Positions 1,032 to 63,481 of a stretch of DNA of 64,000 nt are shown here, in pieces (the stretch's first letter is position 1; the number at the start of each line of letters is the position of its first letter). The DNA is from Podarcis gaigeae (taxonomy: Eukaryota). The notes beneath the pieces were generated by a model, which was not told where the DNA came from, did no database searches, and saw only the letters and a list, made by a program, of their open reading frames with translations. The position numbers were made by a program, and so were the translations under genes. The stretch lies in NCBI GenBank assembly GCA_964106915.2, contig OZ066914.1, one strand, 5' to 3'.

Positions 1032-2425
1032 CTGATTCAGGCGACGTTCGCCGCGTCCGGCGCCCTTTGCCTCTGCTCCGAGTACTCTTCCCTTCCTGAG
1101 GCTGCAATGCGTTGTCCTTTTTCTCTGCCACTTTCCCAGTCTTCCTTTCCAACTCTCTGTTTGCACCGTGGGTCCCTGCCCTGCTTCTATCTGCTCCTGG
1201 CTCCGTCTTGGCCCAGGGCAGGGAATGTCCGTTCTGGCCAGATTCCCGTTTCCGGGCATGCGAGGTTGCACTTGGACCCTTGGGCTCATGGCTCCCTTTC
1301 GCCGCGTTCACAGACCCTCCATCCATGCAGTCATTGCTCTCTGAATGCCCAGCCTGCAGGAGGTCTCTCCTTCCCAAGGGGGCCGCCAGAGTCAGCGGGC
1401 ACTGCTCCACCTTCCTCCGCAGATCTTGCCCATTCAGCTCGCTTTCCTTCTGACCCCTGCTGGGCTCTGCCACCTGCTCAGCTGTGGCCACGCTCCTCGC
1501 CAGAGGCTTTTGCGTCCCCTTGGTCTCATCTCTGGGCCCCACCAGGACCACGCTGGACAATACCAGCTGCTGCACGCCGTGGGCATTCTCTGCCAGGGGC
1601 AAAGCCTTGAGGGGCTTGAGTTTCCGTGGTGGCGGGACCCTGGGAGCAGATGGCTCGGCGGAGGAACGTGGCGATGGTGACCTGAAGAGCTCTTGCGACC
1701 GCCGCAGCTGCTGCTGAGACACGGTGCGCTTGATGCGGCCCAGCTCCTCCGTGAACTTGTGCTCCATGTCGTGCACGCGGCTGGAGAAGCGGCCGCGCTC
1801 ATCCAAGGAGGCCGCCTTCTGGTGGAAGGCACGGCGCCGGAACGCCACACCACCCAGCTCAGAGCGGGTGTCCTCTTGCAGGTCCTCGTGGGAGACGGCC
1901 GAGAGGAAGGGGCTGGCATCGTCAAAGCCGGGCTGGTCAAAAGAGCGCGTCTTGCGTAGCGGCAGCCACGTGTGCCCTGCAAAAGGGTTCTCATTCTGTT
2001 CCAGGCTTTTGCGCCGCTCCTCAAAGAACTTCAGCTTGTCAAAGATCTTGGAGCCCGTCCGCGGCAGCTTGGGGGATGGGCGGAGGACGGAGACGCGGCT
2101 GGAGGCCTCGCTCAGGGGCGTCTGGGGCCGGGACTCTCCTGTGCAAGCCTGAGAGTAGCCAGATGACTTGGGGCGCTTCAGCTTCTCGTCCAGTTCCTCG
2201 GATGCCGTATCTTGGAACTCGGGGGGCATCAGCAGCTTCCTGCGGGGAGCCACAGGTGGGGTGGGGCCACGGCCAGCCCCAGGCGGCTGGACGGGGCACT
2301 GCCCTGCTCTGGGGGACACTGGGCGCTGGAGAGGAGGCTTCTGTGCTGGTGGGTGGAGGGTATCTGTGCTGGTTTTGCTGCTGCTGTTGGCATCATCCCT
2401 CCGGTACCCACCATGGGGGAGGTTG
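1032..2425 (-). CDS. SPEG: SPEG exon 4 (1394 nt, disordered region)
   Basis: NLPHGGYRR...[17 protein letters not shown]...RRTSPES; CTGCAG acceptor, G|GTATGG donor. Confidence 0.95.
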
Positions 2426-5400: not shown

Positions 5401-7129
5401 GAGAGCGAAGGCAGGAGGTGATGGGGAAGGGGAAGATACTGCAGCAGAGGAAGCAGTAGGAGAGACAATGGCAGTATAGTGTGGGTGGCTTCAGAGGGTA
5501 TAGAGAGTGCAGTGGGGGCTGTGGATGGAGGGTGCCACGACATCAGGGATCGGGACTGTGATGATGGGGCTGGGGAAAGTTTCGGTGGTGCCTCGGAATC
5601 AATGACTTAAGAGGTTGAGGGTTCAGCGAGGGATTATGACTGGAGAGTAGGGGGAAAGAGATGGTCCCAGCATAATGGCCCTTGCACCCCACTCCACGGC
5701 CCCATGGCTACTTACACGTGCAAGGAGAGGGCACGGCCCCGGTACAGGCTGAAGGCACTGCCGTAGGGGTCGCTCCCCAGAGACAGGCTGTCCTCGGACC
5801 CCGGGGCCACGCCAATCAGCTCCGCCCGTGATGCCCGCACCAGCGGCTCCACCCCCAGGTGCCGGGCCTCGGCAGGTGCTTGCCTTGGAATGCTGGGGTG
5901 CAGGTAGGGTCCCCTCACCGTGGGGCCAGCCTCTGGGTCCTTCTCCAACACCGTGGTTTGGCTCCCTGACCAGTTGGAGTGCTCATCTGTCTGGGACAGG
6001 CCTGGCACTGAGGTTGGCGTGGTCTTCATGGAGGCATCCACCAGCGTGTCCGACTCCCCTGCAAGGAAAGACAAGCATGGACTGATCGAGGGGGCTGGGA
6101 AGCCCCCCATCTCCCTTGCATCAGATCGGGGCCTGGTAACCCGAGATTCTATCGATATTGTTTAATTTAGGAGGCTGTAAAGTATCAGTTTCTTGGAGCG
6201 TGCAGTGCCACTGCATATATCATGGGTTAGCGTCAGGCCGTGTTCTTGAGGGCTAAGAATAAGCATTTTTCTCTCAGCTGGAAAGGACAAAGAAGAGGGG
6301 CGAAGAAGGAAAAGAAGACAAGGCCAGGTTGGTCACTTAATAACTCAACTCAGCCACCAAGATGATGCGGCCAGAGTGAAGGGAAACACAATTATGCAAC
6401 ACACAAGGTCAGGCATTTGCAGTGAAGGAAGGAGAGACGAACAATTTCTTATTGCAATGATATAAATGAATATTCATGTAGCTCTTTTAACATGCACAGT
6501 GCATTGCAATCATTGACTTGTTTATCCTGCTTTGCAAGGTAGATCATTGTTCCCCCAACTTTTTAGAGACTAGCTTACCCAAGACTACCTACTGAAGGAA
6601 GAGCAGAGATGGAAGGCCAGAACCGCAGTGCTCTGTGCCAGGCACTGAAGACAACCTGAAAAGAGGTACCGGGATGATCAAAACAATGGGAAACCTCTTT
6701 TGTGATGGAAAACTGGGACCTGTTTTTTTGTTCAGTAAAAAGAATGTGAGAGAATAGGCCTGCATTTTTTAAAAAGAGACTCTTCGAGAGGAAAGAACGA
6801 TTTAAACTAAAGGAGATTGTGGAAAGGCAAACAGGTGGCTAAAAGTTGCCCAATGAAAAACTGAGGTTGGAAAGCCAAAGAAGGTTGCTAACAGTGAAAA
6901 GTGCATGGGGAATAATCTCATACATTTACTCAAAAGAATGAATGGAAACTATTCACCTGCTTAGGTGGGTGCTCTCAGGGAAATAAACCTGACTCCCCAC
7001 ACTGCTGACTTCTGAGAATCCAGCTTGCTCCTATCTGAATAAACATGTGCACAGCTCCATCCTGAGTTCTGTTTCTTTGTCACCCGGGAGTGTGACTGGC
7101 TTTTTTATACAGTATAATGTTATGCAGAA

Positions 7130-7172
<43 letters not shown>

Positions 7173-9795
7173 CATCAACACTTAAACCCTGCTCATTAAA
7201 GATTCCAAGTATTGCTCAATTCAGAATACAGCCCCCATTACGCACAGTTTGCTAACTGGGATGCATGATCAACCAAGGGCTCTATCTCCCCCTGCCCCAT
7301 TTGCCTAGTCATTCTGTGGAAGGTGCATGAGCACCGTCTGAAGTGACCAGATACTGAAGGAACCTAGTATGAGGAGGCTATAGCTAAAGCCTGCAATTTT
7401 TCAGTTTTATTTCTGTGGAATCTAATGACCTTTATGCTTTGCTGAGTCCTCTTCTGATATAAAGTTGCCCTCTTTAGTAAATTAATGTTCTGCGTCGGTT
7501 AATATGTGCCCTTCTTCCAGGAAAAGGTGATGTCAGGTTGGCTATGTCTCCGGGGAGCAGTAATTCTCATGCTCCAATGGTAGCTGCCTGCAAAAAGGAA
7601 CCCTGAAGGAGAGTTAAACTCTTTGGCCAATGATCCAAAAAAGCTGGACACTCAGGGGCAGAAGACGCCCCTGCTCATAGGATTCATGGTGAACAAATCA
7701 CTGGGGGGGCGGTATTTGTGTTGGCATGGTATATGTGACATACCACTCTTGCCTCAGAAAGGGCCAGGCAGCAGGGAGGCTACAGTCTCAGGGTTGTGAG
7801 GGGATTTGGGGGCAGAATTGCTGGGGCACCAGCAGCAACATCTTTGGTTTGAAATATAGTTCCATGCCCATTCTGCTCAGAATGCTTGCCAAACCTCTCC
7901 ATTCACCTGCCTTCTTCTCCTCACCTGTCGGGGAGCTATAGGTGGTCTCATCCTGGAGCTGGCTGCGTTGGGTCACCTGTGTGCTGCTGGCATCATCTTC
8001 TCCCGTCTCCGAGTCTGAAGCAAGAGAAAGGACAAGGTGAGGGGAGGACCTTGATCAACAGGTCAGTCCACACCTTCGCCTTGGGTGCTTGTACCCATCC
8101 ATCAAAACTGTATGGCAGAGTCACAAACAGATCCTGCGCGACTCAGAAGTCTCAAGTAAGATCTTGAAAATTCAGCTCTCAGTAAAGGGGTGGCCGGATT
8201 GACTCCTTTATTGGTGTTATGAAGAGAAGGTACAATATAAAAATTGAATTGCATAAAATAATTACTCATTATTGGAAATAATTGTCTATATTTTTGGTGA
8301 TTCTTTTTTCATAAGTGTGTACTAAAGTATGGGGGGCACAGAGGAAAAACATACAAAATGGTGTCAGATGTGCTGCTCCAGCAGAGATGCTCTTAAACCA
8401 CCGTCAATGCTCAGCTTTAGAGAATCCTGGAGCAGGGCTCTGTTATGCTCACAGTTTTATTGTTGTAGCATTGGAAAAGCATTGAACAATATTTGTTTTA
8501 GGGTTGTATTTGTGGCATTCTAGGTCATTTTATACATTAGTATGGTTTTATTTTGAGCTAAGGCTTATCACGGATCATTTTGAATGCTCTGAATGTAATG
8601 AAAGACATGATGGCTGATCACTAAATACAATGAAATGAATCTGATTCTAAGAAGCATTCTCTTTGTGGAGTTTCCATTTTCTTTCAGGGCTTCCCTAATT
8701 TGCAATATGCCCAACAGCAATGACCTGGAGTCTACCATATTCAGAGAAAGGCATGAAATGGCAAACTGTGTTGACTCAGCCATGTGCAGGAACATATGCA
8801 GATTATCCAGGGCCCTGCACAACCAGTGGCATCCTTGCAGTGCAGGTTTCAACTCACAATAATTTGCCACCCTCTCAGGATCTAGATACTCAGGGCAGCC
8901 ATAGTGCCTAGAGGAAAACAAATACCAAAGCTGCAAGTAAGGAAGCCTGGAAGGCCCATTCCTTCTCCCTTGAAAAGAGCCCAAGGTAGGAGGTGATTTG
9001 TATCTCTGTGATTCTACCTCTGTGGAATTCCAGAAATTTGTCTGCTAGGTAAACAAGGGCCCTGAACATTGGAAGAGGCAAGTGGAATGGGGGAGGGGTG
9101 ACCTCTCCCTTTCTTCTTGCATTTCCCTAGATGCAAATTACTGCCTCAGAAGCCACACTTTGCAAGGGAAAATGGGCTTTCATGGCAAAACTTCATATTA
9201 TAGACATATTTTCTCTTTTAAAAAAATGAAAGTTAGGCTGCAATCTGGATCAGAAGACCTGTGGGTGGGAAGGAGACGCTTTCCCCCGGCAACCATTTTT
9301 CTGCTTATAATTGCCTTTCCCTTCCCCCTGCTGCTTTCCTCTCCACAGGGAGAAAGATATGGGAGGGGGGCTGTATCTTCTTCCCTGCAGGTGGAAAGAG
9401 TAGTTTAACGGGAGCTAATCTGAGTGGGAAAACACGCTGGTGGGAATACCTTAAGCCTTCCCAAGCCACCATTCCTTTACGCCCAATTACAGCCTCCTGA
9501 AATTGCTTTTTAAATATATATATATATCTGAAAAAGTTACATGCCACTACATATTAACATGTAGGTTATCATTCTGCCCCCCTTGGTTCAACAGCAACCT
9601 CAGAGAGATTCCATGGAAGCATGACAGATTGCTCCCAAGTACAGCCTGGATTGCACATCCCCAAAGAAGGACTGGATAAAAATATACATAAATTAGTAAG
9701 TCTTTGGAGTCAAATACTGAGAGCCCAGGAGTCTGCCCCTCTTGGGCATGGTGGCTCCTCCATAAAAAAAGGAAAGGAAAGGAAAGGGAGAGGGA

Positions 9796-9833
<38 letters not shown>

Positions 9834-12800
9834 CTCATTTTTCTGGCAGCTGCAGCTCTCCATAGGAGCCTTTACCCCACAGCTAAGAAAACCACAGGGA
9901 GAGTCGTGAGTGACGCTTGACAGATCAGTGTGGCAGCAAATCGACTGGCAGGTTGAAGAAAGGCCAACAACACAGCCATGCCAGGTGAACGGAAGTCAAA
10001 CAAAAAAAATGGGCCTTTGAGAGCCCTGCTCCTTTTGGGGAGAGGACTTGAAGTGCTGGTGCGTGTGTGAGATTTATTTTATTTTTATTTTAGCAGAATA
10101 ATAGCTGGAAGGGAATGTGTCAAGCTGCTCCCACAACCGTACCTCCTCAAAGTCTGCTTTCGTTAAAAAGAGAGAATGTTGGGGGCAGGAGGGGATCCAT
10201 GTACAGCGTTGCATGTCCATCTCCATGGGAAATCGAGTCAGCCCATAATAGCAAGATTCGCGTGGAGAGACAGAGAAAACCTTCTGCCATGTACTAGTAG
10301 CGCAGGGAAGGGCTGGCAGCAGCGTGGGAAGGGAAGATGCTCAGGCCAGTCATACAGAGAAGCAAAAGGATGCCCACCAAATTCTGCTAGAATAGGATAA
10401 GCCCCGCAAAGGAAGAGAGCAGCAGCAGCAGCAGGATGAAGACGAGGTATGGAGAGAGCCAGGAGGGTAGGCTGGGAGGGGTGTGTGGGATGAGACGCAG
10501 CTTGGGAAGAGAAAAGCATGAGGCAGCACAATTTCCTACCGTAACTTTGCTTTCTGCAGGAGCGGAAAACTTCGCTTCCATAGGGGCAGCAAGAAAGAGA
10601 GACACACGTCAACAAAGCGTTACCGCCCAAATCAGCCCAGGCCCTCAAATATTCCAGCATGTGATGGAAGGGGGGATTTATAGCCTCTGGCCCATGAAAC
10701 CCATTGAAGTTTGGGAGAATGCAAGTGGACAAGAAGGCAAGGCATACGGACATAACCTAAATGGTAGAAGGTGCCGCTCTGCCATTGAAACTCATAAGGA
10801 CCTGCCTGGGGAGTGAAATCTAGCAGGAAACTAAATTAAAAACTTGGGCTGGGGTGGGTGGGGTTGCAACAGCCATTTCTCTAATAATCCCCACGTGTTT
10901 CAAGACCCGGGTTCAAAACGCCCAGCACCAGTAATATCTTCTCCACTCCCCCAAGCCACAACCCTCTCATTCCCTTTCCCCCAAGCTGCAGCCTCCACCT
11001 ATGTCACAGCACCTGAAGTGCCAGATGATGAAAGGAAACCTTGCTGGGTGGCAACAAAAGCCCCCTATTATGTGACTATGTAGAGCTTAACTTGCAGGAT
11101 CAGATCAAGATCCACCTACTCCAGCATTTATGGTTCCCAAATGGTAACTAACCACAAATCCCCCCCCTTCCACCACCCACCCCCAGCAAACTCACAATCA
11201 GGACATTAACTTGAGGGCCAACCTCTGTATTTTGTCCCTAGCATCTGGTAATAAAAGATACACTGCCTCTGAACAAGCACATTTTATATTTAGTTATTAT
11301 AGTTAATGGCAACAGATAGGCCTACCCTCTCTGAATTTATGGAATGCATCTTAAAGCCACCTAAGCTACGGACCAGCACTATGTACCATCCTAGGGAATT
11401 CTATATGGACATCATCTTGCCTGTCCTAAATATATTACCAATGGGTGGCATCAAGTTTCCAGCTTCAGAACAATGCAGGCGATTAAACCAACTTCAAACT
11501 ATGGTTTAATATCCTGACTTGTTCCAAAACTGGTAACCATTGTTTCCTGGTTTGGACAAAATAGGAAACAATGCTTTAAGTAGCGAGCTTGTTTGCTCAA
11601 ACATAAAGGGAGGGGCCAAGAGGCTGTGTGTGTGAGCAAGAGATAGGATTCAGCTGAGACAGGGTAATCCAAATGTCATAAATGTCATAAATGTGATTCT
11701 GCACAAAGCAATTCAACCTGTCTGAAATATCTGTCTTTTGGTCCTTCTTTATATAAAACACACACAACATGCCACCGTATCACAGTGCACAGCTTCCCTT
11801 TGGATCCCCCCTTTTGGCAATGTTGCCTCCTTATTCTGAAAAGGGCAGGGCTTCTATCCCTTGTAGAGATCTGAGACAGGTCAACTTTGCGAAGGTGTAG
11901 TTTCTCCCATCATTGCAACCTTGTAGGAGAAACTCTACATGTAAAATGTCACTTGTTAACGGAACAGAAACCTTTGCCTTTGTAGAATATGTACAGCTCC
12001 CAAGGTCTACAAACTGAGCTCTAACTTCTATCAGCTAAGCTCATCGCACCCCCGCAATCTACCTCCCAAAGTGGGTGCAGGAGGAGGTTGCTATGGACAG
12101 GTGTAGGGAATCTTTGGCCCACCAGATGCAGCTGAATTACAACTCCCATCAGCCCTAGGCCATTGATAACGGGAGCTGTACTTCAGCACATCTGTAGGGC
12201 CAAAGGTTCCCCACACCTGGAATAGGCTAGTCATACCCCCCTCTACCCCAGCTAGAGTCTTTTTCTATTTGACTGTTCTCTCCCCCCCCCACCAGCCCCC
12301 AACATATCAGGAAAGCCTCTGGCAGGAAAGGGCAGAAGTAATACAACGCACCATGCGTGAAGCGCCCAAAACGCCGCGAGTGGCCACCTTTCTGCAAAGG
12401 AAAAAGAAAAGGAAAAAGCATTACCTCCGACTGAGATGGAGAGGGGGAGATAGTGGAAATATGGTGACGGGGCAGTGCTCACGGGATATCGTCATCAGTC
12501 ACCACAGAGACCAGAACCCCAGCAGGAGGCCAGGGGAAAGGCTTCAGGGGAAAGGCCTTCCACCTACTTCTGAACTTGCCACCAGGGCAAAAAGTGTATC
12601 AGCCCCCTACTGCACCATCTACACAAAGCCTTGCAAGGCATGGGATCCACCAGAGCCAAGCACAATGGTCACACCCACACCATACAATTAGTGTGCATGG
12701 CTCCAGGGTACTGGGAACTGTAGCACTCTGAGAGGTAGACTGCAGATTTCAGGAGTCTCTGGAGGAAGCAATGTACATTAAACATATGGTGTGGGTGCGA

Positions 12801-15800
12801 CCCAAGGTCATGTGCTGCTGGCTCCACCGAAAGTCGGGAAAAGTCAGAAGGACAGGAGCCTGAGTGCTTGTGGTGATCCAGGCAGATAAGAAGAAGAGGC
12901 TGACTTTCTGCCTCTTTCCTGGGAGGAAATCCTCAGAGAAATTGCCCCCACCCAAAGATAAGCGTTCCACTGTTTAAATTCTCATCTTGCCGCCCTCTGG
13001 TGAGCTCTGGGCAGCTGGGAATCTGCAACATTTGGTGAGTCCCCTCAGAAGAGACACATCTTGCGCATTTCATCACAGATGAAGATCCAGCCCAGTTGCC
13101 CCAAATGCGCTGGCACACGCCGGCGCAGCAATCTAACAGTAACAGGCTGAAGTGCTGCCACTGGCAATGGCTTTCCCCTCTGCTCACTCTCTCGTCTCCG
13201 TCATGCTCTTCTATGTGGTTCTGAGCAGCTATCAAGACTTATGGGATCCATGTGGGAAATCATTCCTGGCACATGCATCCAGCTACAACTGGATTCCTAG
13301 GTGACAGGTTGCCCAAGAACAGGCCAATCATACTATCCATCAGGGAAGGACGGCTCTCTGAATTCAGGACCAGTGAAACAGATGCACTTGTGTATGTGTG
13401 TAAGTTGATACGTGCGCGCGCACACACAGAGCATCTGATGCACAAAGTCGCCCACCCCTCACTCCCAGATTTCCTGCTGTCCCATATCCCAGAAAATTTG
13501 CTCTACCAGCTAGATTTCCACGATGCTAATAGTGAGGTGAAACACCTTGTGCAGCAATAAATGGAGGTGACAGGACCATTCTGTGATAAGTAAGAGATGT
13601 GGTGATGCAGGGTGCTGGCACAAGAGAGAGGGTGATGTACACACCCACCCCACCCAGTTTGGCCTTTTCTCTTTTGTACTGGACATCATTGAGGTGGGAG
13701 GTATCAGAGGCATAAACTCCAGCCAGAAGAAACAAATGCTCCCAACAGCAACTGATCCAGGTGGATTTGTATTCCAGCCAAGCCAGCTTGCCCAAACAAG
13801 ACTGGCGCTGGCGGGCAGCCCATGTGCCAGGCCAGAAAGATGTATGAATAGATTAGCTATGCTGTTGGTGGATAATTCCCCCATTAAGAAAACGGAAATG
13901 CAATAAAACGGCAGTAATGGATACCTGGCTGGCATCCCCCCTGTCGGGCACATGGCAATGGGCAAGCCCTGGCTCCAGGATCACATACCCAGCAGCTTCC
14001 TACTGTGGCACGTTGGGCAAAGAGGCATCTGGGCAGGCAAAGTGCATCCCTGCTCCATAGCCAATAGCACAAGCAGCCCAAAATTTAAGGTGGCCACCTT
14101 GCCGGACATCCTGCTCAATATGAGTTGCACTAGGATGGTAGGAAAAAGGGGAAATGGCATTTGGACAAAGAGGTAAGTACCAAGCAAGAATGGTGTTGCA
14201 GCTGGAGGCTGCCAGGAGGCAAATCCCTTCTTAGCAATGGGGATTTGTTGCCTTGGCAATGAATGGGGATACAACAGCCTTGACTAGGGTGTACGGCCTA
14301 ACTGGACTCCAGCCTTCTTTACCAGCCAGGGTCCTTCTTTCTCTGCCGCTCTCCCTTCTTAACTGCATATAGGAGGAGAGGGAGAGATGTTTTGGATGGC
14401 TGTATGCTCCCCACTCCACCATGTGTGTCAGTCTGTTTCCTGCCTGCCTGGTTTGGGATGCAACAGCTCTCTGCTCTGCAGAGGTGAGAGACTGGCATCC
14501 CTGTCCTCAGGTCTAGAAAGCTCATCTCCCCTCAGGCTGCCAAGGCCGCAGGCCTCTGTAGAAACAGAGGAGGAAAGCCTTGAGCCATCTGATCAAAGAT
14601 GAAACATCCTGTTTCCAAGGATGCCCAAACAGATGTTACCAAGCAGGAAGAATGACAACCCCCGCCCCCACCCCCTTCCTTATTTCATCTGGTGCCCTTG
14701 CATCCCCGTCTCGCCCCTGCAGAGAGGGAAGCTAGTGGGGCATCCTGGCTGGAAGATCAGCGCTGGAGGGGTAGGGTGGGATGGGGTGGGGTACGTTATT
14801 ACTGGAGCAGGCAGTGATGGGGTGATGACATGCCCTAGCTATGCCTGCTGTGAATGATTCCCGTCCCCCTATTAGTTGAACCGGGGAGCCTCCCCCCCCC
14901 CTTTCGATCATCCCTGCTTGGAGGCCCCCGAGTGACGTCCAGGCCACGAGGAGCTGCGCTCCTGCCAGGTGCTGACGCGCAGTGCCGGATCATGACGCAG
15001 AGGCGCTCAGCCTCCGTGGCCACCGGGCTTGGGGATGGAGAGTAAAAAGAGCCACGACCCCCAGGATCCATCGCCTCGGGCATCTTAGGGGAAGAAGAGG
15101 CACGGCTCATTTAATCGCCCCCCATCCCGGGCATTTCTTAAAAGCCCCAGACAGCACCTTGCTCATCATCACCTCGAGCCCAGGGGCTTGGAAGGTGAGC
15201 GCAGAGGACCACCGATCTACAACCACCACCCTGGCGTGGCCAATCCCACCCCGGCAACAAGGTGGCACACATCCCGAGACCAGCGGGGAGTCCTACTCCG
15301 GGAAAGCCGGGTGGGGCTCCGCGAGGGGTGCGCCTTCTCACTTTCCCCTCCGGCGCCCACAACGCCCTGATGATGCCTGCTGGACACACCGCCTGGGCAC
15401 CCCGTTCCTCCCCTCCCCCGTCCCACGCCCGGACCCGTTACCTGGAGACGCTTCTTCACCCAGATCTTCTTCATGTCCGCCCCTCCGTCGCCCCCTGGGC
15501 GCCCTCCACCCCACCCCCCGGCGGTCAGCGCGATGCGGCGGGGCCGGGCTTGGAGCGCAGGGGCGGCCGGGGCAGAAGGAGCATCCCTCCGCGGGAAGCG
15601 GACGCCGGCCTCTCTCCGCTCCTTGCCTCGCCTGCGCTGGCAGAGCTGCCAGCCAGCCCGGAGCCTCGCCCGCCGCCCGCCCGCCCGAGACAATGACAGC
15701 GCAGGCGGGGAGGTGGGGGGGGGGCTGGGAGGAAGGAGGGGCCGGAGGGAGGGAGGGGTTGGAGGGAGGAGCTGGGGGGGAGAGAAATGAGAGGGGGTGG

Positions 15801-18800
15801 CCCCCCACCCCGCAGAAGGGCTGCCTCCCCTCTAAGCCTGGCGGGGTGGGGAGCTTACCCCTCCCAGAGCCACCCTCGACAGCGCCCATCAATCCACGGT
15901 TGCCATGGAGGGCTTGGAGGTAGGCGAGGGTTTCTGCCCATCTTGGAAGATGGCGAGGTGGCCTCGTGGGAAGGATCGAGGCAGGGACGGGCGAAAGGGC
16001 GCCGCGGTGCAAAGCCAAGGCTCAGCATCGGGACGTGGGTCCCGTCTAGTGGGCATCGGCACTGCCCCGGTGCTTCCCGGCTACATCCCAAGAGCGCCGT
16101 GAGGAAAGCCCCTTGCAGAGGGAGGCGTCTCTCGACAGGAGTTTCCCACTGTACCTAAAGAGAACCTCCACGTTCAAAGGCAGCATACCCCCAGTGAGGA
16201 AGTGGCGGGGGGGGGGGGGCGAGGGACAGGTAACAAGGAAAGGCTGTTGTCTTAATCCTGCCCTGCTTGAGAGCTTCCCACAGACATCCAGATAACCAGT
16301 GTTAAAAGCAGGATGCTGGACCAGATGCAGTTTTCCTCTGTTCTACAAGGCAGTCCTTGTTTCCTCCTGTCTTAAGTTGTGAGGTTCAACATCCCCTCTC
16401 TCCCTTCCCCATCCATGGATAAAATCTGCCAGTACACAGCGTGACATTCACATGCAAACACACTACACTGCCCACTACTCTGAGCAGGACTACGCTTCCC
16501 CATTTTGTGGGTGGGTGTAGTAAGAGTTTTGCTCTAGGTGCAGCACAGAACAACACAGAACAAGCAAAACTCCTGCTCAATTTAGGTTAAGTGGGAAAGA
16601 CCAGGAAGGTGTGTTTGTGTGCAATGCGCGTGCGTGCACGCACACACACAATACTTATGGGTAGAAGGGCTAAAGCAGGTAGCGGGCAAGGGCTGCATTC
16701 CCTTGGTGGAGGGCTCATCAGTTGGAGCCCTCATGAGCCAGAGACAAAGGTGTTTGGGATTATCTACTCCAGAATCAAGAAAACACCCTTTTCAATTTTC
16801 ACAATGGCTACCTCAAATTAAAATGCCCAGTCCTGTGCAGATTTATGCAGAAGTAAACCCCACAAGGTTTGATACATAGAACAGAAGACTACAAATTTGT
16901 TCTTTAACATCTGGAAGGGGTAAGAGAAACCTTCTTTGCTCCAAGGTATGCAACAAGGGGAGAAAGCAAGTACATTTATCAAATAAAATACTGACCCTTT
17001 AACAATCCAGGAAAGATAAGAAGGAAACGAATAGGAAGATTGCATCTGTGATGGAGTGGAAGAGTAACAGTTTCAGAAGACATGGGGTGGGGAGCACATA
17101 AAATGGGGCTGAGGGCTGTACACAGCCCCTTGCCTTTAGTTTGCCATCGTGTGGGTTAGAGGCTAACTATCAGATGGCAGCTAATATAAGGCTCCCAGCT
17201 TCACAAACAATGCCTCCTCTCACTGCCTCCTGCTCTAAATTTCCACACCTTGAATCCCCACTTTCAGTCAATTGTACTCCTCATATCCACTAAACCATTC
17301 ATTCCTAGCAATCCCTCCAAACAGAAATGGTGAACCAAACATAGCGGACCAAGATCCCACCATAGAGGGTACTGCGTGCAACCTCTTCGGGGCCCAGCAG
17401 AACCACACAGAACTCTGCCGACACTCCTGGCCCTCTTTCCAGCGATAGGCTTTACCAACACAGCCACTCAGCTTAAGCAGTGCAAAGAAGGTTAAATCAG
17501 GACACTCTAACTCCAGCATAAGATGCATAAACTTAGGGAGAAATGGGAGCACTTCAGGATTGTTACAGAAGGATCACCATGCTGACTCAGACTACTTCAT
17601 GCTGGTTCACCTTGGTCAGCATTTTGCCTTGTGCAATGACAGACTCCAGATGAGAAGTTTATAAGCTTACAAGCAGTACAGAATGGCAATACCCAACCTG
17701 TGAGCTCCCCTGAATGAGGAGATTGAATCTCTGGTTGTCATGCCTTGTGCTGAATCAGACCATTCATCAATCTAGCTTGGAATTGCTTGCATGGGCTAAC
17801 AGTCGCTCTCCAAGGTTTCTTTCCTAGCTCCACCTGGAGATGCTGAACCTGTGATCTGTCTGTGCAAGGCATGGATCACTGAGCTATGGGTCATCCCAAA
17901 GTGGTTAAACAATCAATCCTTCTTCCCATGGAAATCTGGAGATTGTGGGAGTGTGTGTGGGGGGGGGTGTGTTCCTTATCACTCAGCACTCTTAAAAGAT
18001 TATATTTCATAGGATTCTTTGTGAGGGAACCATGGATGTTTGCAGTGGTATATTAGTGCTTTTAAATGAATGGTGTAAATGTGGCCAGTGTGTCCACTCT
18101 AGCTTATCTAACAACTATCAACTCTCTTATAAGTATACTCAAGTGTCACCTTCATCTCATTCTCCCTCGGTTGTCCCTCTAGCCTACCAACCAACTTACT
18201 TTTCCCTCAAATGACTCTCTCTTTCTCTCAACATTTCAAAAACAGCAAAGATTCCTGCATCTGATAAAGTGGACAATGGTCTACAAGAAGCCTACAAAAG
18301 TTACCATAGTCTTTAAGATGCCTCAAGAATCTTTGTTGTTTGCACTATTGAAGGCAAGGTAATGTGGATAGACTGCTTCCACCCTCAAATGTATTCTTTA
18401 CACACATCTAATGTGTACCCTCAGTTACATATTTAGCATGTTGCAAGTGTGTGAAAGGCTGCTTCCAAAAATGGATCCGCTTAGATGTATTTGCTTTAAA
18501 GAGAGGCGGTGGTGATGTCATATTCTTCCTCCTCCCCATTTTATCTTCACAACAACCCTGTGAGTTAGACTTCATGGCTGAGTAGGAATTTGAACCCTGG
18601 TCTCCCTAGTCCTTGTCCAGCACTCTAACCACTATACCACACTGGGTCTCATAAGCCTGAGGGCAGGAGGTGGCCTTACTAAGACATTCTGGGAGCTTCA
18701 TATAAATAAATATTCTTGTAGATTTGCAGGACCAAAGCAGGCCATAATTAGATGTGGGGGGTTGAAATTGCATGGAGCGAGTGGCAGTCTGCATGAAACA

Positions 18801-27800: not shown

Positions 27801-30800
27801 AAGGGATACACAACACTTTCCAGGGCTTTCCCCCACAACTTTCCTGATGCGGATTTCTGGGTCAAGGCCTCTCAATCAACTAGAATTGTGCAACCTGGAT
27901 TTGCCAACATGTGATTGAAATCCCATTCAAAGTGCATTGAATTGTTTTTATTGTATGTTTGTAAGTCGCCTTGAGACTCATGTGAAAGTTGACTAATGAT
28001 AATAATAATAATATCTGGCTCTGAGTGAGTATTGCCAGCTTCCTTGGGTGTGCTTGGTGGAGACACCCTTCCTCGTCTTTCCCCTCTTCCTTGCCCTGAA
28101 GGTGGTGAAACATGTCAAGAGCCAGTGGGAGTGGGGAGAGAGAAGAAGCCGGCCATGTTCTCAGGCATGAGAAAGCAACACTCAGAGAAAAGCCTAGATG
28201 CCTGAGGAGGTTCAGTGCAATGTTCTAGTGTAAGCACTATATTTACTCCCCTTGTGGGCCTGGCACTTGCCCTCTGCCTGGTGTGTAACACAAGCTCTGG
28301 CTGCCCCGCTAGAATCTGAGGGGCTGGCACATTCCGTCGCAAAAATAGCCACCAAACCCCAAGCGAGAGGCTGACTGACTGGACAGCTGCAACAGACAGA
28401 GCTGTCACACAGAAACTGGGACTAGCAATGCATTTGGGACGTGCCCCCCCCCCCCCGCAGCATGTGGAAGGGTTGTTCTTGGCCCAGGGATGCTTCCAGT
28501 TGGACAGAGCCAAAGTCACTCAGCTTGACACATCTGGGGGGCAAGGCAACCATTTTGACTACCACTTATGCCAGATTTTAGTCCACTTATCCGCTTGTGC
28601 TTCTGATGAGGAGGAGAAATGGGGGTTGCACTATGGCATGAAGATGTTTTAAAAGCAGAGAAAAAGCAATAATGTAAAACACATGCTTTTTGACTGTCTT
28701 GGTCTTGAGGTGCAACCGTGCTATTAGATCCCTAACTGATATGGTGGGAACTCAAATGGGTTCAGTGTCCAATAGAGTGCAATAAGCAGGCTATCCGAAC
28801 TCTGTTCCCCAGCTCCCTGGTAGTCATGCACATCTGTAGAATAGAAGTTCTGTCAGTGACTTGTTTGGAAAGAGGTTGTGCCTTTTGAACTATGAATCTT
28901 GATGGATCCGAAACCTTTGCATCACTTTGGAAGTATTTATTAGCCACATCTTTGCATTTGTATTTCAGCAGTCCTAAGCAGGATTTAGGACACAGGCCCA
29001 GGACACAAATTTGCATTAACACTTGCATGTGCTAATTTATATGTCTGCTCAGGCATCCCCAACATTGTGCTTTACAGTACACCCAGCTTCCCTGTAAGCA
29101 AAGTGAAACATGAATCGCTGGCTTTTTAAAAGAGGAGGAAGAGGCAGACGATCCAGAGCACAATGCAAAATGCTGGGGCTCAGTCTCTTGTAATCAAGAC
29201 TCTTTCCCCAAAGTGTTTAGGATTTAAATTGCTGTTTTTAATTTGCGGATATCTAAGGGGGGGGGGGGAAATAGCAGATTTTATTATAGTCTACAACACT
29301 NNNNNNNNNNNNNNNNNNNNNNNNNNNNNNNNNNNNNNNNNNNNNNNNNNNNNNNNNNNNNNNNNNNNNNNNNNNNNNNNNNNNNNNNNNNNNNNNNNNN
29401 NNNNNNNNNNNNNNNNNNNNNNNNNNNNNNNNTTATGTCATTTCCTTGTGCATCTTGGTAATAAGTTGATTTCTTTTTTTAAAAGAAAGAGAAAGGAAAC
29501 CTTGGAGTTATCCTCAGGTTAAATACCATCCAATTGTGGTTGGAGCTTCCTTTCTCTCGGAGAAGAAGAAGGAAAGCGAACTGTTTCAACACAACATGAC
29601 ATGCAACACCTGTGGGACATTAGAAGTGAGGCTACATCTGCAGCAGGGGCGTAAGTGTAGTTTGCCCATACATACTCCTGCCCACCTTCGATCAAAGTCA
29701 GCATGTTATTAGTAGAGGTCTCCACAAGGGGAGTTTTGACACTTGTGAGCATCCAGTCTAGAAAAACATCCTGATGCTGGTTAGTCAACAAAAGCAAAAT
29801 TGAGCTGATTATATCAGTAGGGACAATGCTGGGAACACATAATGAATCATATTATGAGGAGTTTGGGGGATCGGGTCTGGGCTCCTTCCAAATCTTGGGA
29901 TCTGGGTGTGGGGATTCAGTGGAATGTATAAGAGCAAGCTTGCCAAAGCAGTTCCTTTGTCAAGGTAAGTGCCATAAACAAAGAAGAAAAAAAGCCAGAG
30001 AAATGTGTGAGAGCTGAGCTGGGAGCTGGAGGCAGAGAGAGACATGTTTTTGCTCTGTGTTGGATTCAGAGCTGTAACTAATTGAGAAGGAAGTGTGAAT
30101 GCTGTGAGCTCCTCCATCTTATGCTCAGGTTGCACTTACATGCAAATAAAACCATATAGCCTAAAAACACCACAGTTGACCTTCATTCCATGGAAACTGA
30201 ACACTGGAGTCTCTTACTGCTCAGAGGTTGAGTTGGCATTTAACAGTACGAACCATATGAAACAAAGAAAAGTGATTAAGCACAGCAGGTGCAGAGAGGA
30301 TCAATGATAATCTAAGGCGTGTGGGAAGCCTATCTGTGTTTGTAGCATGGAAAAGCAGATCAAAGAAGAGCTAACCCTAATCTCCTGTCTAGGCAGCTAG
30401 TCCTAGGTACTAAAATTAAAAAAAAAAATTGTTTAACCGAGAAGAATGTAGAGACTGCCAGCATGGGTCAACACTGGAATACAGTCTGCAATGGGATGTG
30501 AAATAGCATATATGGCATCTTTCATATATTAAATAATTATAACAAGCCCATACACATTTAGGATTAGGAAACATGGCATCTAAGGGCAGAGGATGTTACA
30601 CTTGGGAATCTTCACACACACAAATTTGGTAACAGAAACGGCAACAAACCCACCACCTCTTTTTCATTATACCTAATCCTTTCTTCAACACATGCACACA
30701 CAACTTGCTCACTCTTGCACAAAATTACAGTGCACATATGCCAGATTATCCACACATTGAAGGAATGCCTTCTGCTATCTGGAGAGCAGAATAAACTCTT

Positions 30801-40449: not shown

Positions 40450-41367
40450 CTAGCTGCTGCTGCTACAGCACTTCTTTGCCCAGTTCTATTCAGTGAAAAA
40501 GGCCCAGGTGTTTACGGGGCGACAAGTGTTCAACACGGCCTGCAGGAAGCCCCCATTCTTCCTGCAATGCCTCTACCTGCGGCAGAGGGCTGTTCCATGC
40601 CTCTGATACACTTCTAAAGAGGTGCAGGGGCTCAAGCCTGCCCAAGAGCCAACAACCAGAGTGGACCCCTTGCACCACTAATCCCAGAGGCATTCCTTGG
40701 AAACTGCTGTGTTGACTCACTCTGTGAATGGTCTGAGGCATAATTTCACCACTTCTAGGGCTGCGCTGGAAAGAGGGAGAAGCCCTAGCTGTGGTTTAAC
40801 CCTCAACAGGTCTGAAGACCCGGAGCCACCCATATCTGAGAAGAGCAGTAATCATGGATCCTTTCACAAACCTTGCTGCCGGTACAGAGACCAGGCAGAG
40901 CACCTTTGCCCACCGCCACCACCACCTCTCACTTTGCCCGTACCTTCCATATCTGTGACAGTCACAGTGGCGCTGCTGACCACTTCGCCATGTTCATTCT
41001 TGGCCATGCATTTGTAGAGTCCAGCGTCGGCTGCTTTGCAGCTGCAGATCCGGAGGCTGCCATACTCCTCCTCTTGGCCGTCCTGCTCCTTGGTGGATGC
41101 GATGGGCACTTTCTCCTTGTACCAGCTCAGGTGCGGCTGGGGGCTGCCTGCCACCACAACCTTCAGCAGGATGCTATGGCCGATGCTGACCGTTGTGTCT
41201 GTCAGCTCCTGCAGGAAGACCGGCGCAGCAGCAGCAGGGCTTCCCTGCTCAGTCATCGCAACTTTGGCTCTTTTGGGAGGGATGGCAGGGCTTGGGGGGG
41301 CTCTCCCTGAGCCCCGTCCCGTCCCCCCAGCCGGATGGAGGTTGCTCTGCCCCTGAGATCTCTGCAT
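1032..41367 (-). CDS. SPEG: SPEG (striated muscle enriched protein kinase), 5' partial CDS: join(41367-40944,8014-7925,6058-5716,2425-1032); continues off the left end
   Basis: Splice phases are consistent (1,1,2,1). Motifs [15 protein letters not shown], an Ig domain, [49 protein letters not shown] and [12 protein letters not shown] match the SPEG N-terminus. Synteny downstream of DES. Confidence 0.95.
2686..2812. mobile_element. Short MITE with CCAGTGCTATTTTT / AAAAAGCACATGG ends
   Basis: Terminal inverted repeats; internal GGTGCCGGTACT twice; related piece near 25975-26097. Confidence 0.5.
4372..4509 (-). mobile_element. tRNA-Asn-derived SINE with CR1-type tail
   Basis: Head with CTGTTAACC anticodon arm; tail CCAACTCTATGATTCTATGATT. 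Confidence 0.75.
5716..6058 (-). CDS. SPEG: SPEG exon 3 (343 nt)
   Basis: ESDTLVDAS...[17 protein letters not shown]...YRGRALSLH(V); GTAAGT donor. Confidence 0.95.
6640..6920 (+). mobile_element. Ancient CR1 remnant
   Basis: Degenerate similarity to the CR1 ORF2 end (TTTAAACTAAAGGA...GAGGTTGGAAA...AGAAGGTTGCTAAC). Confidence 0.45.
7132..7169. repeat. (TA)n microsatellite
   Basis: Seen directly in the sequence. Confidence 0.95.
7925..8014 (-). CDS. SPEG: SPEG exon 2 (90 nt)
   Basis: (D)[29 protein letters not shown](G); TTCAG acceptor, GTGAGG donor. Confidence 0.93.
9765..9830. repeat. Purine tract and (AG)n microsatellite
   Basis: GGAAA/GGGAGA repeats then (AG)n. Confidence 0.9.
12352..12391 (-). 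CDS. SPEG: SPEG alternative second exon ([13 protein letters not shown]+G, 40 nt)
   Basis: Long pyrimidine tract plus TTTGCAG acceptor; G|GTGCGT donor; phase 0 to 1 joins exon 2 as H-D-S-E-T. Confidence 0.85.
14850..16150. promoter_or_regulatory. CpG island / internal SPEG promoter
   Basis: Very GC- and CpG-rich compared with its flanks; GC boxes, three TGACG half-sites (14933, 14973, 14993), G-rich tract 15706-15780; contains the alternative first exon. Confidence 0.85.
15442..15474 (-). CDS. SPEG: SPEG alternative first coding exon ([11 protein letters not shown]), BPEG-type isoform
   Basis: ATG in a CpG island, 11 codons, donor CAG|GTAACG; in frame with 12352-12391 and exon 2. Confidence 0.85.
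24365..24700. repeat. Foldback palindromic MITE
   Basis: GGCTCATGGTTTGTTTCTCCCAAACAAAC vs GTTTGTTTGGAGAGAAACAAACCATGAGCC; outer CCATGAATGAAAC / GTTTCATTCATGG. Confidence 0.8.
29301..29432. other. Assembly gap (132 N)
   Basis: Run of N. Confidence 1.
30985..31221 (+). mobile_element. 5'-truncated Sauria SINE
   Basis: CTGCCAACCTAGCAGTT...GCAAGTAGATAAATAGGTACC...ACCTTT tail; flanking repeat TACTGTTCTG at 30977-30986 and 31222-31231. Confidence 0.88.
36391..36544 (-). mobile_element. tRNA-Asn-derived SINE with CR1-type tail (second copy)
   Basis: TGTGGCGCAATAGGT...GTTCAAGCCCACCCAGGGA head; ATTCTATG tail. Confidence 0.78.
37133..37262 (+). mobile_element. tRNA-Lys-derived SINE with CR1-type tail
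   Basis: ATAGCTCAACTGGTAGAACATGAGA...GGGTTTGAACCC head; ATTCTATGATTCTATG tail. Confidence 0.72.
38960..39260. promoter_or_regulatory. Candidate muscle enhancer in SPEG intron 1
   Basis: CArG CCATATTAGG 39028-39037; MCAT CATTCC 39006-39011 and GGAATG 39244-39249; E-boxes 39062 and 39145. Confidence 0.55.
40399..40448. repeat. (CTGT)n/(CTAT)n microsatellite
   Basis: Seen directly in the sequence. Confidence 0.9.
40944..41367 (-). CDS. SPEG: SPEG exon 1 (long-isoform start; I-set Ig domain)
   Basis: MQRSQG...PPKRAKV...APVFLQEL...LSWYKE...[15 protein letters not shown]; donor G|GTACGG. Confidence 0.93.
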
Positions 41368-43195: not shown

Positions 43196-43481
43196 NNNNN
43201 NNNNNNNNNNNNNNNNNNNNNNNNNNNNNNNNNNNNNNNNNNNNNNNNNNNNNNNNNNNNNNNNNNNNNNNNNNNNNNNNNNNNNNNNNNNNNNNNNNNN
43301 NNNNNNNNNNNNNNNNNNNNNNNNNNNNNNNNNNNNNNNNNNNNNNNNNNNNNNNNNNNNNNNNNNNNNNNNNNNNNNNNNNNNNNNNNNNNNNNNNNNN
43401 NNNNNNNNNNNNNNNNNNNNNNNNNNNNNNNNNNNNNNNNNNNNNNNNNNNNNNNNNNNNNNNNNNNNNNNNNNNNNNNNN
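43196..43481. other. Assembly gap (286 N)
   Basis: Run of N. Confidence 1.
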
Positions 43482-45392: not shown

Positions 45393-45756
45393 AAAGGTAA
45401 AGGTAAAGGTACCCCTGCCCGTGCGGGCCAGTCTTGACAGACTCTGGGGTTGTGCGCCCATCTCACTCAAGAGGCCAGGGGCCAGCGCTGTCCGGAGACA
45501 CTTCCGGGTCACGTGGCCAGCGTGACATCGCTGCTCTGGCGAGCCAGAGCCGCACACGGAAACGCCGTTTACCTTCCCGCTGGTAAGCGGTCCCTATTTA
45601 TCTACTTGCACCCGGAGGTGCTTTCGAACTGCTAGGTTGGCAGGCGCTGGGACCGAGCAGCGGGAGCGCACCCCGCCGCAGGGATTCCAACCGCCGACCT
45701 TTCAATCGGCAAGTCCTAGGCGCTGAGGCTTTTACCCACAGCGCCACCTGCGTCCC
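45393..45756 (-). mobile_element. Full-length Sauria SINE (young) with 12-bp TSD
   Basis: Head GGGACGCAGGTGGCGCTGTGGG, (ACCTTT)n tail, TSD GGTGAAAGCCCT at 45381-45392 and 45757-45768; CpGs retained. Confidence 0.92.
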
Positions 45757-45927
45757 GGTGAAAGCCCTGCCTGCAATCTATTTAGGGCAGGAGCGAGGAA
45801 TATTTCTCAGCCCAAGGGTCACATTCTGACCTGGGCAACCTTCTGGGGGCCACATGCCTGTGGCGGGCAGGGCCACAAGCAAAGGGTGAATTTTACTTTT
45901 GTACAGTAGGCTAACAAAAACTTTTGC

Positions 45928-50079: not shown

Positions 50080-51372
50080 CCAATTTTGTGCTCCATAGTT
50101 TATTAATCACTTGGCAGAGCCAGGGGCGTGCTGGGGTGGGAGGGTCAGGGGCACACAGCATCTCTCCATCTCCTCCCTCCTCTTTCACTCACACACCCAC
50201 CATTTTTTTCCACACTCTCGCTCTCTCTCCCCCCAAATCCATCACCTGCCAGTTCCTTCTCTTATCTTCTCCAGCTCCTGTAAATGGCCCCTTGTATGCA
50301 GCAGCCCCTACAAGAGAGATTGGGATCTAGGATGGGGATAACACTCAAGACAGGGATGCCTCTAGCTGGCACCCATCGGTGCTGTTCTTCCCTCCTTGGT
50401 GTTTCCCATAGCTCACACCCCAAGTCTAGGAGCTTTGCTTTGCAGCAGGTGTGGGTTCATTTACCCTAAGCAGTCCCACTCACTTCCTCCTTTAAGGGGG
50501 CCCAACCCTCCCAACCTTCTGCCCGCTGCCCTGGCAGGAAATCCCAGCATGGGTGGGAGGGTAAGCGCTTGTCTGAAGCCAAAACTGCAAGCTAAGAATA
50601 TCAGGAGAGCTGCTTTCTTGGAGGGACTGACATTCACTGAAGCTAGAGATAACAAGCCCCTCCCCACAACCCTCCAGGCAAGGAGTCCTGCTCCATTGCA
50701 GGAGGTGGGGTGAGGAGAGGCGCGCTGTGGCTTTGGTCTCAGAGGCAAGGCTGGGCAGTTGGCTCATCTCCGTCCTCTGGGCTGTGCCAGCTTCCCCTGC
50801 CTCCTTCCCCTGTCCCCTCATAGCCTGCAGACCAGGCACATTTCTGCTGCAGCAGACGGGCCTTGAGGGGACAGGGGGCCTGTGGCGGCACTCAGGCTGG
50901 GGGTGAAGCTTCACACATGGCTGTCATCTGGGCATGTTGGTGGGGAGTCAGTGCCTGCATGGTGCATGGGTGAGAGATTGACACTGCAGTCGGCGGCCGG
51001 AGTTTCAGACCCTATGTAGCAGGAAGCCTCCCCACCCCCAACACAGGAAGGGCACAGGAACATACGCATTGATGCACACACACACATACACACACAGCTG
51101 CCCCTCTCTTTCAGTCTTCCTAGCCACAGGAAAAACAGAAGGGGAGCAGAAAGAGAGAGGCGTTGGGAAACGGGGTGCGGGGAGAGCCATGCGCGCACGC
51201 ACACACACACACACGTGTATGTGTGCGGCTGGGTGTGTGAGGTTTTCCAAGTAGTGCCGTCACAGAATGGGTGAATGGAAGACTGCGTGGGAGCTAGCAA
51301 CCCCGGGCCTTTGCACGCGGTAGGGGAGAGGGTTTTGAGATGCGCCAGTTGCCTCTCTGGGGACGAAAAAAT
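50080..51372 (-). other. DES: DES 3' UTR (about 1.3 kb)
   Basis: Runs from the stop codon to the AATAAA at 50099-50104; cleavage site is approximate. Confidence 0.7.
50099..50104 (-). terminator. DES polyadenylation signal AATAAA
   Basis: TTTATT on + strand; GU/U-rich element (GTGGTCTGTGTCTTTT) about 20-40 nt downstream on - strand. Confidence 0.75.

Positions 51373-63481
<12,109 letters not shown>

Follow-up and report, generated by a model that had tools for sequence, protein, structure and literature searches.

An alternative SPEG start, shared by teleosts and mammals, as a possible displaced smooth-muscle MLCK regulatory tail

SPEG is implicated in myopathy and cardiomyopathy. In 1-8-14 calmodulin-binding motifs, bulky hydrophobic anchors occupy positions 1 and 14, and a hydrophobic residue occupies position 8. 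A calmodulin-binding motif has been predicted behind SPEG kinase 1, as stated in the accessible part of one report (PMC7957886). BPEG is described as a 4-kb, kinase-less isoform of SPEG present in brain and aorta; the accessible text of the reviewing literature characterises this isoform merely as kinase-less and assigns it no function (PMC8199188). In the MLCK family, intron 27 of mouse mylk1 separates the calmodulin-binding exons, the codon position not being given in the accessible part of that paper (PMC10533999).

The window, i.e. the whole stretch of 64,000 nucleotides of Podarcis gaigeae DNA analysed here, contains two small exons that form an alternative start of SPEG and take the place of an exon encoding an Ig domain; all of the exons described below lie on the minus strand. 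The coding part of exon A (15442..15474; 33 nt) runs from ATG to CAG, specifies residues 1-11 (Met1 to Gln11) and ends at a GTAACG donor. It is followed by a phase 0 intron after Gln11 (12392..15441) and by exon B (12352..12391; 40 nt; residues 12-24), which has a long pyrimidine tract with a CAG acceptor, and a GTGCGT donor. The shared part of the gene consists of exon 2 (7925..8014; 90 nt, phase 1-1, with an acidic start and its acceptor at 8014), exon 3 (5716..6058; 343 nt) and exon 4 (1032..2425; 1394 nt, a low-complexity linker); the 3′ end of SPEG falls outside the window. The reading frame through A, B and exons 2-4 is open over 633 codons, and that obtained when exon B is left out closes after 24. 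The other first exon, of the SPEG-beta type (40944..41367), encodes one I-set Ig domain (Pfam I-set, E 3e-19), maps to residues 1-141 of protein P0003 and is likewise in open frame into exons 2-4. Its donor is phase 1, the phase in which A+B also finish. When the Anolis protein P0006 was compared with the window by tblastn, its residues 1-11, 10-24 and 25-34 matched exon A, exon B and positions 10569-10540, respectively, each at 100% identity. The encoded peptide has 24 residues, nine of them Lys or Arg and none Asp or Glu. The first-pass annotation, which had proposed these two exons, their in-frame splicing to exon 2, a basic peptide free of acidic residues and the displacement of the Ig domain, was thus borne out by the coordinates, splice signals, residue count, matching phase and open frame, as was its claim of a CpG island at exon A.

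That CpG-rich region (14851..16200, no strand assigned) has a GC content of 0.67, an observed/expected CpG ratio of 0.65 and 99 CpG dinucleotides; in its core (15251-15750) both GC content and ratio reach 0.74, compared with ratios of 0.27 over the entire window and 0.41 at the Ig first exon. Five GC boxes were found upstream of exon A, and a pattern scan there returned no TATA match. The region is likely an alternative, TATA-less promoter with a putative start site. A CArG box at 8205-8214 is one of six in the window and was given no weight.

A further cassette, overlooked in the first reading, is exon C (10540..10569; 30 nt, phase 1-1), the inclusion of which lengthens the open frame to 643 codons. 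Its 10 residues include a Cys and an R-K-x-S site, and are identical at 10/10 positions in 10 of the 12 other alignment rows (9/10 in frog). Exon C directly follows A+B in 69 of the 90 collected proteins that start with the peptide, is missing from one bird isoform, and is also joined behind the Ig exon in 12 collected proteins. A tandem acceptor lies 5 nt upstream (10570..10574); its use would shift the frame and lead to a stop after 49 residues, and proteins P0209 and P0212 carry the same frame-shifted tail.

Exons A and B are already annotated in other species and are therefore not new. The Anolis entry UniRef100_A0A803U1S2 is identical to the lizard sequence over A+B+C (34/34) and over the peptide (24/24), and the curated human RefSeq isoforms 7, 8 and 13 (NP_001425857.1, NP_001425858.1 and NP_001425863.1) open with a 25-residue form, in agreement with the earlier suggestion that the lizard peptide resembles a mammalian N-terminus one residue longer. 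The peptide stands at residue 1 in 81 of 213 collected proteins; birds and squamates have one residue fewer in it than mammals, frog, lungfish and teleosts do. Conservation across amniotes, as originally claimed, thus holds and was understated, since the peptide is kept across bony vertebrates. Between the lizard and teleosts, peptide identity is 19-21/24, as against 45-56/101 for Ig2 in the four teleost rows with this domain; the peptide is better kept and is therefore under strong selection. Its annotated bearers have neither a function nor a domain assigned to it, and no Pfam family was detected in 10 N-termini. The peptide may correspond to the N-terminus of BPEG, to which the first-pass annotation likened it. 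Databases contain kinase-less proteins of ∼740-970 aa that begin in this way and carry an APEG-1 Ig domain at the C-terminus, a size that fits the 4-kb BPEG mRNA reported in the accessible text (PMC8199188). Kinase-less proteins are not its only bearers, as the peptide also starts predicted full-length two-kinase isoforms; 52 of the 90 collected proteins with this start exceed 1600 aa and belong to the length class with kinase domains, these long isoforms being gene predictions.

Sequence comparisons indicate that the peptide is very probably homologous to the regulatory tail of smooth-muscle MLCK (smMLCK; gene MYLK), which comprises a pseudosubstrate and a calmodulin site. A profile search of 177,635 PDB sequences, not blind since a suspected resemblance had prompted it, gave nine hits (best E 0.0064), the first six being the smMLCK calmodulin-binding peptide or variants of it. 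Five of these six are named smMLCK or RS20, and the first, labelled otherwise, agrees with them in its 17 aligned residues; the nine included no other calmodulin-binding peptide. The lizard-type sequence alone had no hits in PDB. A profile search of 1.84 billion representatives returned no MYLK at E 0.001, its eight hits being seven SPEG-type sequences and one repetitive protein judged to be a chance match.

The genomic counterpart was a MYLK-type locus, L001, which represents the end of an MLCK-family kinase. There, an exon ends in M-K-K, seven codons, Gln and GT, and the next starts with Lys-Thr-Gly-His. The intron between them (828-1118) follows the codon equivalent to Gln11 and is in phase 0, as between exons A and B; this match in position rests on a single locus, and Gln codons with a final AG are common splice points. 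Exon A would correspond to the 11 codons that close the MYLK kinase-end exon, i.e. the pseudosubstrate half (identity with L001:795-827 at 4/11 residues and 19/33 nt), and exon B to the second half of the smMLCK calmodulin-binding site (7-9/14 residues identical). All 15 distinct 25-residue forms aligned with L001 without gaps at 8-13/25 identities, scores reached by none of 200,000 shuffles in each case; a profile built from the full set of 22 distinct N-termini gave L001 22.9 bits, a value attained by none of 20,000 shuffles (best 13.2). The lizard form itself required one gap (10/25 identities), and its score was reached by one of 5000 shuffles. A second locus match, L002, had no flanking MYLK residues, looked bacterial and was set aside as chance. 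Neither tblastn with proteins such as P0006 and P0003 nor the ORF lists showed a kinase exon before exon A. The literature searched, which did not extend to the original BPEG paper, contained none of four peptide motifs, no printed form of the peptide and no link between SPEG and the MLCK tail.

The anchors of the calmodulin site are kept in part. Lungfish, teleost, marsupial and horse retain both outer anchors (aromatic or aliphatic residues at 10 and 23, with 1-14 spacing); in frog, position 10 is Ser. In birds and squamates, the window included, the loss of one residue turns the 1-14 spacing into 1-13, so that register 6-19 or 10-19 is needed; the lizard and bird forms indeed have bulky anchors at 1 and 14 only in the shifted register, at 6 and 19. 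In every SPEG form scored, the middle anchor (position 8, Val17 in MYLK) is replaced by Arg, Ser, Thr or Gly, and in the four 1-14-spaced ones by Arg or Ser; the hydrophobic moment is 0.56-0.62 in SPEG forms as against 0.71. The peptide may nevertheless bind Ca2+/calmodulin. Of the three functions offered by the first-pass annotation, calmodulin binding gained support from the homology to the smMLCK tail, with the middle anchor lost, and nuclear localisation gained none, no pattern for it being found.

Loss of the middle anchor, with invariance of the basic residues and of the M-K-K start, would also suit a peptide of the same MYLK origin that has retained its pseudosubstrate half and acts on a kinase domain of the MLCK family, as an inhibitor or by docking, with little control by calmodulin. 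The target would be SPEG's own kinase in long isoforms, and MYLK, DAPK or ZIPK in trans for kinase-less ones. The MLCK autoinhibitory peptides SM1 and AV25 do inhibit ZIPK in trans, according to the accessible part of one study (PMC4033950), and more than half of the proteins with the peptide start are of kinase-bearing length. However, exon B, the calmodulin-site half, is the better kept (7-9/14, compared with 4/11 for exon A), the peptide lies ∼1500 residues away from kinase 1 in the long isoforms, and these isoforms are predictions; this alternative appears unlikely.

Whatever its origin, the peptide might now serve as a membrane anchor without any role for calmodulin, acting as a polybasic segment with Trp and Phe aided by palmitoylation of the exon C Cys. 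N-terminal placement suits polybasic membrane anchors, the net charge is +7 to +9, Trp5, Phe20 and Phe/Leu23 are invariant, and the invariant Cys adjoins basic residues. This would leave the retained MYLK residues Gln-Lys-Thr-Gly-His and Gly-Arg unexplained, however, and exon C follows the Ig exon, in the absence of the basic peptide, in the 12 proteins noted above; we regard it as quite unlikely.

It is improbable that the exons arose in place and that the likeness to MYLK, a matter of two short basic helices, reflects convergence or chance. With just 25 residues, a best PDB E-value of 0.006, no MYLK at the scale of 1.84 billion representatives and no PDB hit for the lizard form alone, such a resemblance could be accidental, but the ungapped match from the same Met, the shuffle controls, the intron at the same codon and in the same phase, and the want of any other calmodulin-binding peptide among the nine PDB hits argue against it. 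A nuclear localisation signal, suggested by 9/24 basic residues, is highly improbable, since K-[KR]-x-[KR] and bipartite (10-12 spacer) patterns occurred in 0/9 peptides scanned.

Two other sources were considered. The peptide is identical to the tail of SPEG kinase 1 at only 2-5/25 positions, so that this tail is not the source, and the N-terminal profile gives kinase-1 tails -0.5 to 2.5 bits, which likewise rules it out. The kinase-less isoform as a whole might have been left over from the MYLK 3′ end; Ig2 does match telokin (E 1e-11), without preference over titin, ROBO or OBSL1 domains, and the transfer of a longer piece of MYLK is therefore unsupported.

Our principal reading, on which we place about even confidence, is that this start, conserved from teleosts to mammals, is a displaced smMLCK regulatory tail acting as a Ca2+/calmodulin-sensitive, basic N-terminal switch. 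Two tail exons of a MYLK-type kinase gene would have entered SPEG intron 1 and come under a CpG promoter, the former internal Met of the M-K-K motif becoming the start codon. At low Ca2+, a helix of net charge +9 would dock onto an acidic partner, either a membrane or the substrate groove of a kinase; Ca2+/calmodulin would wrap residues ∼7-23 and release the peptide, changing the location or cargo of the isoform, and phosphorylation of the invariant Ser16, or of the R-K-x-S site in exon C, might tune the response. More broadly, and tentatively, falling just short of an even call, SPEG could be a mosaic gene into which the smMLCK calmodulin-switch exons moved with their intron before the bony-vertebrate split, yielding a free-standing sensor in brain and vascular isoforms and possibly a trans-inhibitor of MLCK-family kinases in kinase-less ones. 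Neither of these proposed roles is recognised in Pfam or in the literature searched. If correct, an N-terminus that surpasses the Ig domains in conservation and descends from the smMLCK switch would offer a specific, easily tested hypothesis for the brain/aorta isoform, and would clearly exemplify how the regulatory tail of a kinase can be put to new use, free of its kinase, as the start of a protein. Variants in such small exons might escape notice where only the muscle isoform is screened.

Compared with annotated SPEG isoforms (Anolis, human and gecko XP_060117589.1), the lizard start has the same two exons, optional cassette and exon 2 junction, and differs in no structural respect. In contrast to the kinase-less BPEG, predictions also place this start on two-kinase isoforms. 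The tail of SPEG kinase 1 is also of MLCK-family type and has the R-R-K/R-W-Q half in common with MYLK, but sits elsewhere in the protein. With the smMLCK regulatory segment (RS20; PDB 1CDL, 2O5G, 1QS7 and 5JTH), the peptide shares M1 K2 K3, Q11, K12, G14 H15, R18 and G21 R22 in register, and the outer anchors 10 and 23 are kept in most non-sauropsid SPEG forms. It differs in having Phe or Leu for MYLK Trp10, and Ser plus a polar or basic residue for Ala-Val at 16-17. Whereas the MYLK segment follows a kinase domain and is succeeded by telokin, the SPEG peptide is itself the N-terminus, with no kinase in front, and is succeeded by cassette exon C and an acidic exon.

The alternative start of SPEG is real, and is already annotated in the isoforms of other species. 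The basic peptide of 24 residues encoded by exons A (15474-15442, minus strand) and B (12391-12352, minus strand), both placed by reading the sequence, stood at the N-terminus of 81 of the 213 stored proteins. An Anolis database protein (P0006) showed identity over 34 residues, mapping at 100% onto A, B and the exon at 10569-10540, and three curated human RefSeq isoforms (7, 8 and 13) open with a 25-residue form, which bears out the likeness to a mammalian SPEG N-terminus, one residue shorter in the lizard, proposed in the first-pass annotation. This residue is absent in birds and squamates. When residues 1-45 were compared with proteins of 1592-4545 aa, 54 of 109 candidates matched, all with kinase domains on record; they came from squamates, birds, marsupials, placentals, lungfish and many teleosts, and frogs also have the peptide. 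Conservation across amniotes, as first claimed, therefore held, but the age had been understated, since the spread over tetrapods, lungfish and teleosts makes the peptide at least as old as the bony-vertebrate ancestor. There was no shark entry among the proteins with this peptide, which is weak evidence. Proteins with this start were shorter than 1600 aa in 38 of 90 cases and longer in 52, the longer ones being gene predictions. Several teleosts have annotated proteins of 183-219 aa (P0207 and P0214-P0218) forming one cluster, the representative of which has the peptide at its start and neither an Ig nor a kinase domain; very short products of this start may exist. Between lizard and teleosts, identities were 19-21/24 for A plus B, as against 11-14/31 for exon 2 in all but one of the six teleost rows, where it was 10, and 45-56/101 for Ig2 in the four rows having it.

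The minus strand of the window carries desmin-type and SPEG exons. In the region searched, the large SPEG exon shares 99% identity with an entry from Podarcis muralis. Intermediate-filament (desmin-type) exons lie upstream of SPEG at 62930-63481 and 56672-57130 (both minus strand), in the known DES-SPEG neighbourhood. Two further stretches rich in CpG (45401-45850 and 51101-51400), which lie between the SPEG Ig exon and the desmin-type gene, are candidate regulatory elements; two runs of N (assembly gaps, 29301-29432 and 43196-43481) both fall outside the finding. Inspection of the sequence confirmed the proposed exons A and B, the exon 2 acceptor (8014) and the in-frame splicing of A and B to exon 2, with 633 codons open through exons 2, 3 and 4 (8014-7925, 6058-5716 and 2425-1032, minus strand, from sequence reading). 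Skipping of B closes the frame. The Ig first exon (41367-40944, minus strand) also ends in phase 1 and leaves 750 codons open with exons 2-4, so the two starts are interchangeable. The CpG island noted at exon A was present, with an O/E of 0.74 in its core (15251-15750) versus 0.27 for the whole window and 0.41 at the Ig exon. The exon A start codon has G at -3, and the closest upstream ATG opens an out-of-frame ORF of 19 codons. A CArG box, one of six in the window, lies at 8205-8214, 190 nt ahead of exon 2.

Exon C (10569-10540, minus strand), a 30-nt phase 1-1 cassette identical in 10/10 residues between lizard and teleosts, came straight after B in 69 of the 90 proteins; in a further 12 proteins it followed the Ig exon. 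A second AG lies 5 nt upstream of its acceptor (10574-10540, minus strand), behind a purine-rich stretch, and its use shifts the frame to yield a 49-residue product. Since the same shifted tail occurs in a tailed-frog entry (P0212) and in P0209, another stored protein, the tandem acceptor seems old; it may be a conserved decay switch, or may provide a short peptide of the calmodulin-like segment alone. The intron just ahead of exon C (about 10600-10570, minus strand) reads in frame as L-S-C-C-x-Y-G-S-E, a stretch also seen in many mammalian isoforms with exon C extended upstream, which suggests either that the intronic sequence is conserved or that there is another internal start.

A likeness to the tail of smooth-muscle MLCK (smMLCK; MYLK) was suspected beforehand and then put to a PDB search. 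The lizard-type sequence alone gave no match in PDB. A profile built from 10 N-termini picked across taxa (E up to 10) gave nine; ranks 1-6 were the smMLCK calmodulin-binding peptide and its variants (E 0.0064-0.29), the other three being coagulogen, EF-Ts and a calcium-sensor construct. A pattern scan over metagenome contigs yielded two loci, L001 and L002, the latter a chance match. Separately, a giant-virus contig (L003:741-1190, plus strand) codes for a full 149-aa calmodulin. L001 is a genomic piece of the end of an MLCK-family kinase (best PDB match MYLK4, E 2e-14), and its tail is identical to the smMLCK peptide. The last codons of its exon read M-K-K, seven more residues and Gln; a 291-nt GT-AG intron comes next and then Lys-Thr-Gly-His. 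Exon A is built alike, with M-K-K, seven codons, Gln and a phase-0 intron. The available text of PMC10533999 has intron 27 of mouse mylk1, which holds the telokin promoter, lying between the exons of the calmodulin-binding domain, the codon being left unstated.

Ungapped alignment of 15 distinct 25-residue forms with L001 gave 8-13 identities, at scores reached in each case by 0 of 200,000 shuffles. When every one of the 22 distinct forms went into the profile without selection, it scored 22.9 bits against L001 (E 0.00075 at PDB size; reached by 0 of 20,000 shuffles). The window's own form scored 44 in gapped local alignment, a value that 1 of 5000 shuffles attained. The tail of SPEG's own kinase 1, in which a calmodulin motif is predicted (PMC7957886, available part), was ruled out as the source by its poor match (2-5/25 identical, versus 11-13 for MYLK, in four species) and by the lack of an internal copy of the peptide in 66 long proteins. 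Against homology stand the shortness of the match, a codon-exact intron known from one locus, the absence of any MYLK at E 0.001 among 1.84 billion proteins, and SPEG Ig domains that show no favour for telokin. On balance, the peptide is very probably homologous to the smMLCK tail.

As to function, a weaker, tunable Ca2+/calmodulin switch is the best reading, held with middling confidence. At rest the basic helix would be docked on an acidic partner, from which Ca2+/calmodulin would release it; Ser16 and the exon C site R-K-x-S are the likely points of control by phosphorylation. Compared with the 1-8-14 class of calmodulin-binding motifs, the lungfish, teleost, marsupial and horse forms retain the outer anchors at residues 10 and 23 (25-residue numbering), but in these forms the middle Val of MYLK is Arg or Ser. 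The frog form has Ser at residue 10, and the residue lost in sauropsids calls for a different register. Inhibition of ZIPK in trans by MLCK tail peptides (PMC4033950, available text) favours a pseudosubstrate or kinase dock, which nonetheless seems unlikely; anchoring in the membrane, helped by palmitoylation of a Cys, appears somewhat less probable still, and we give little credence to the likeness to smMLCK being due to chance. The nuclear localisation first suggested is highly improbable, the peptide having no NLS pattern.

The available parts of PMC8199188, PMC1352370 and PMC10502019 present BPEG as a 4-kb isoform that lacks kinase domains and belongs to brain and aorta, and a 2026 paper, in its available part, reports a kinase-containing SPEG isoform with a preference for cerebellum (PMC13478751). 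An N-terminal MLCK-type segment in SPEG was not found in the SPEG, BPEG, calmodulin and MLCK literature searched, including the available parts of PMC3114093, PMC5440522 and PMC4054884, although the likeness may have been remarked on before in Hsieh 2000, Sutter 2004 or Tam 2006; the reference lists of PMC2116294 and PMC2289613 contained nothing bearing on it. The same literature yielded neither any of four motifs of the peptide nor a paper on SPEG and a microexon. The likely descent of the peptide from the calmodulin switch of smMLCK, its intron retained, has no print record in the literature searched and makes the function of the peptide directly testable. In MLCK and DAPK1, according to the available text of PMC4033950, binding of Ca2+/calmodulin displaces a pseudosubstrate segment that is autoinhibitory, and more calmodulin is required when this segment is phosphorylated. 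In the SPEG copy, no kinase precedes the peptide.
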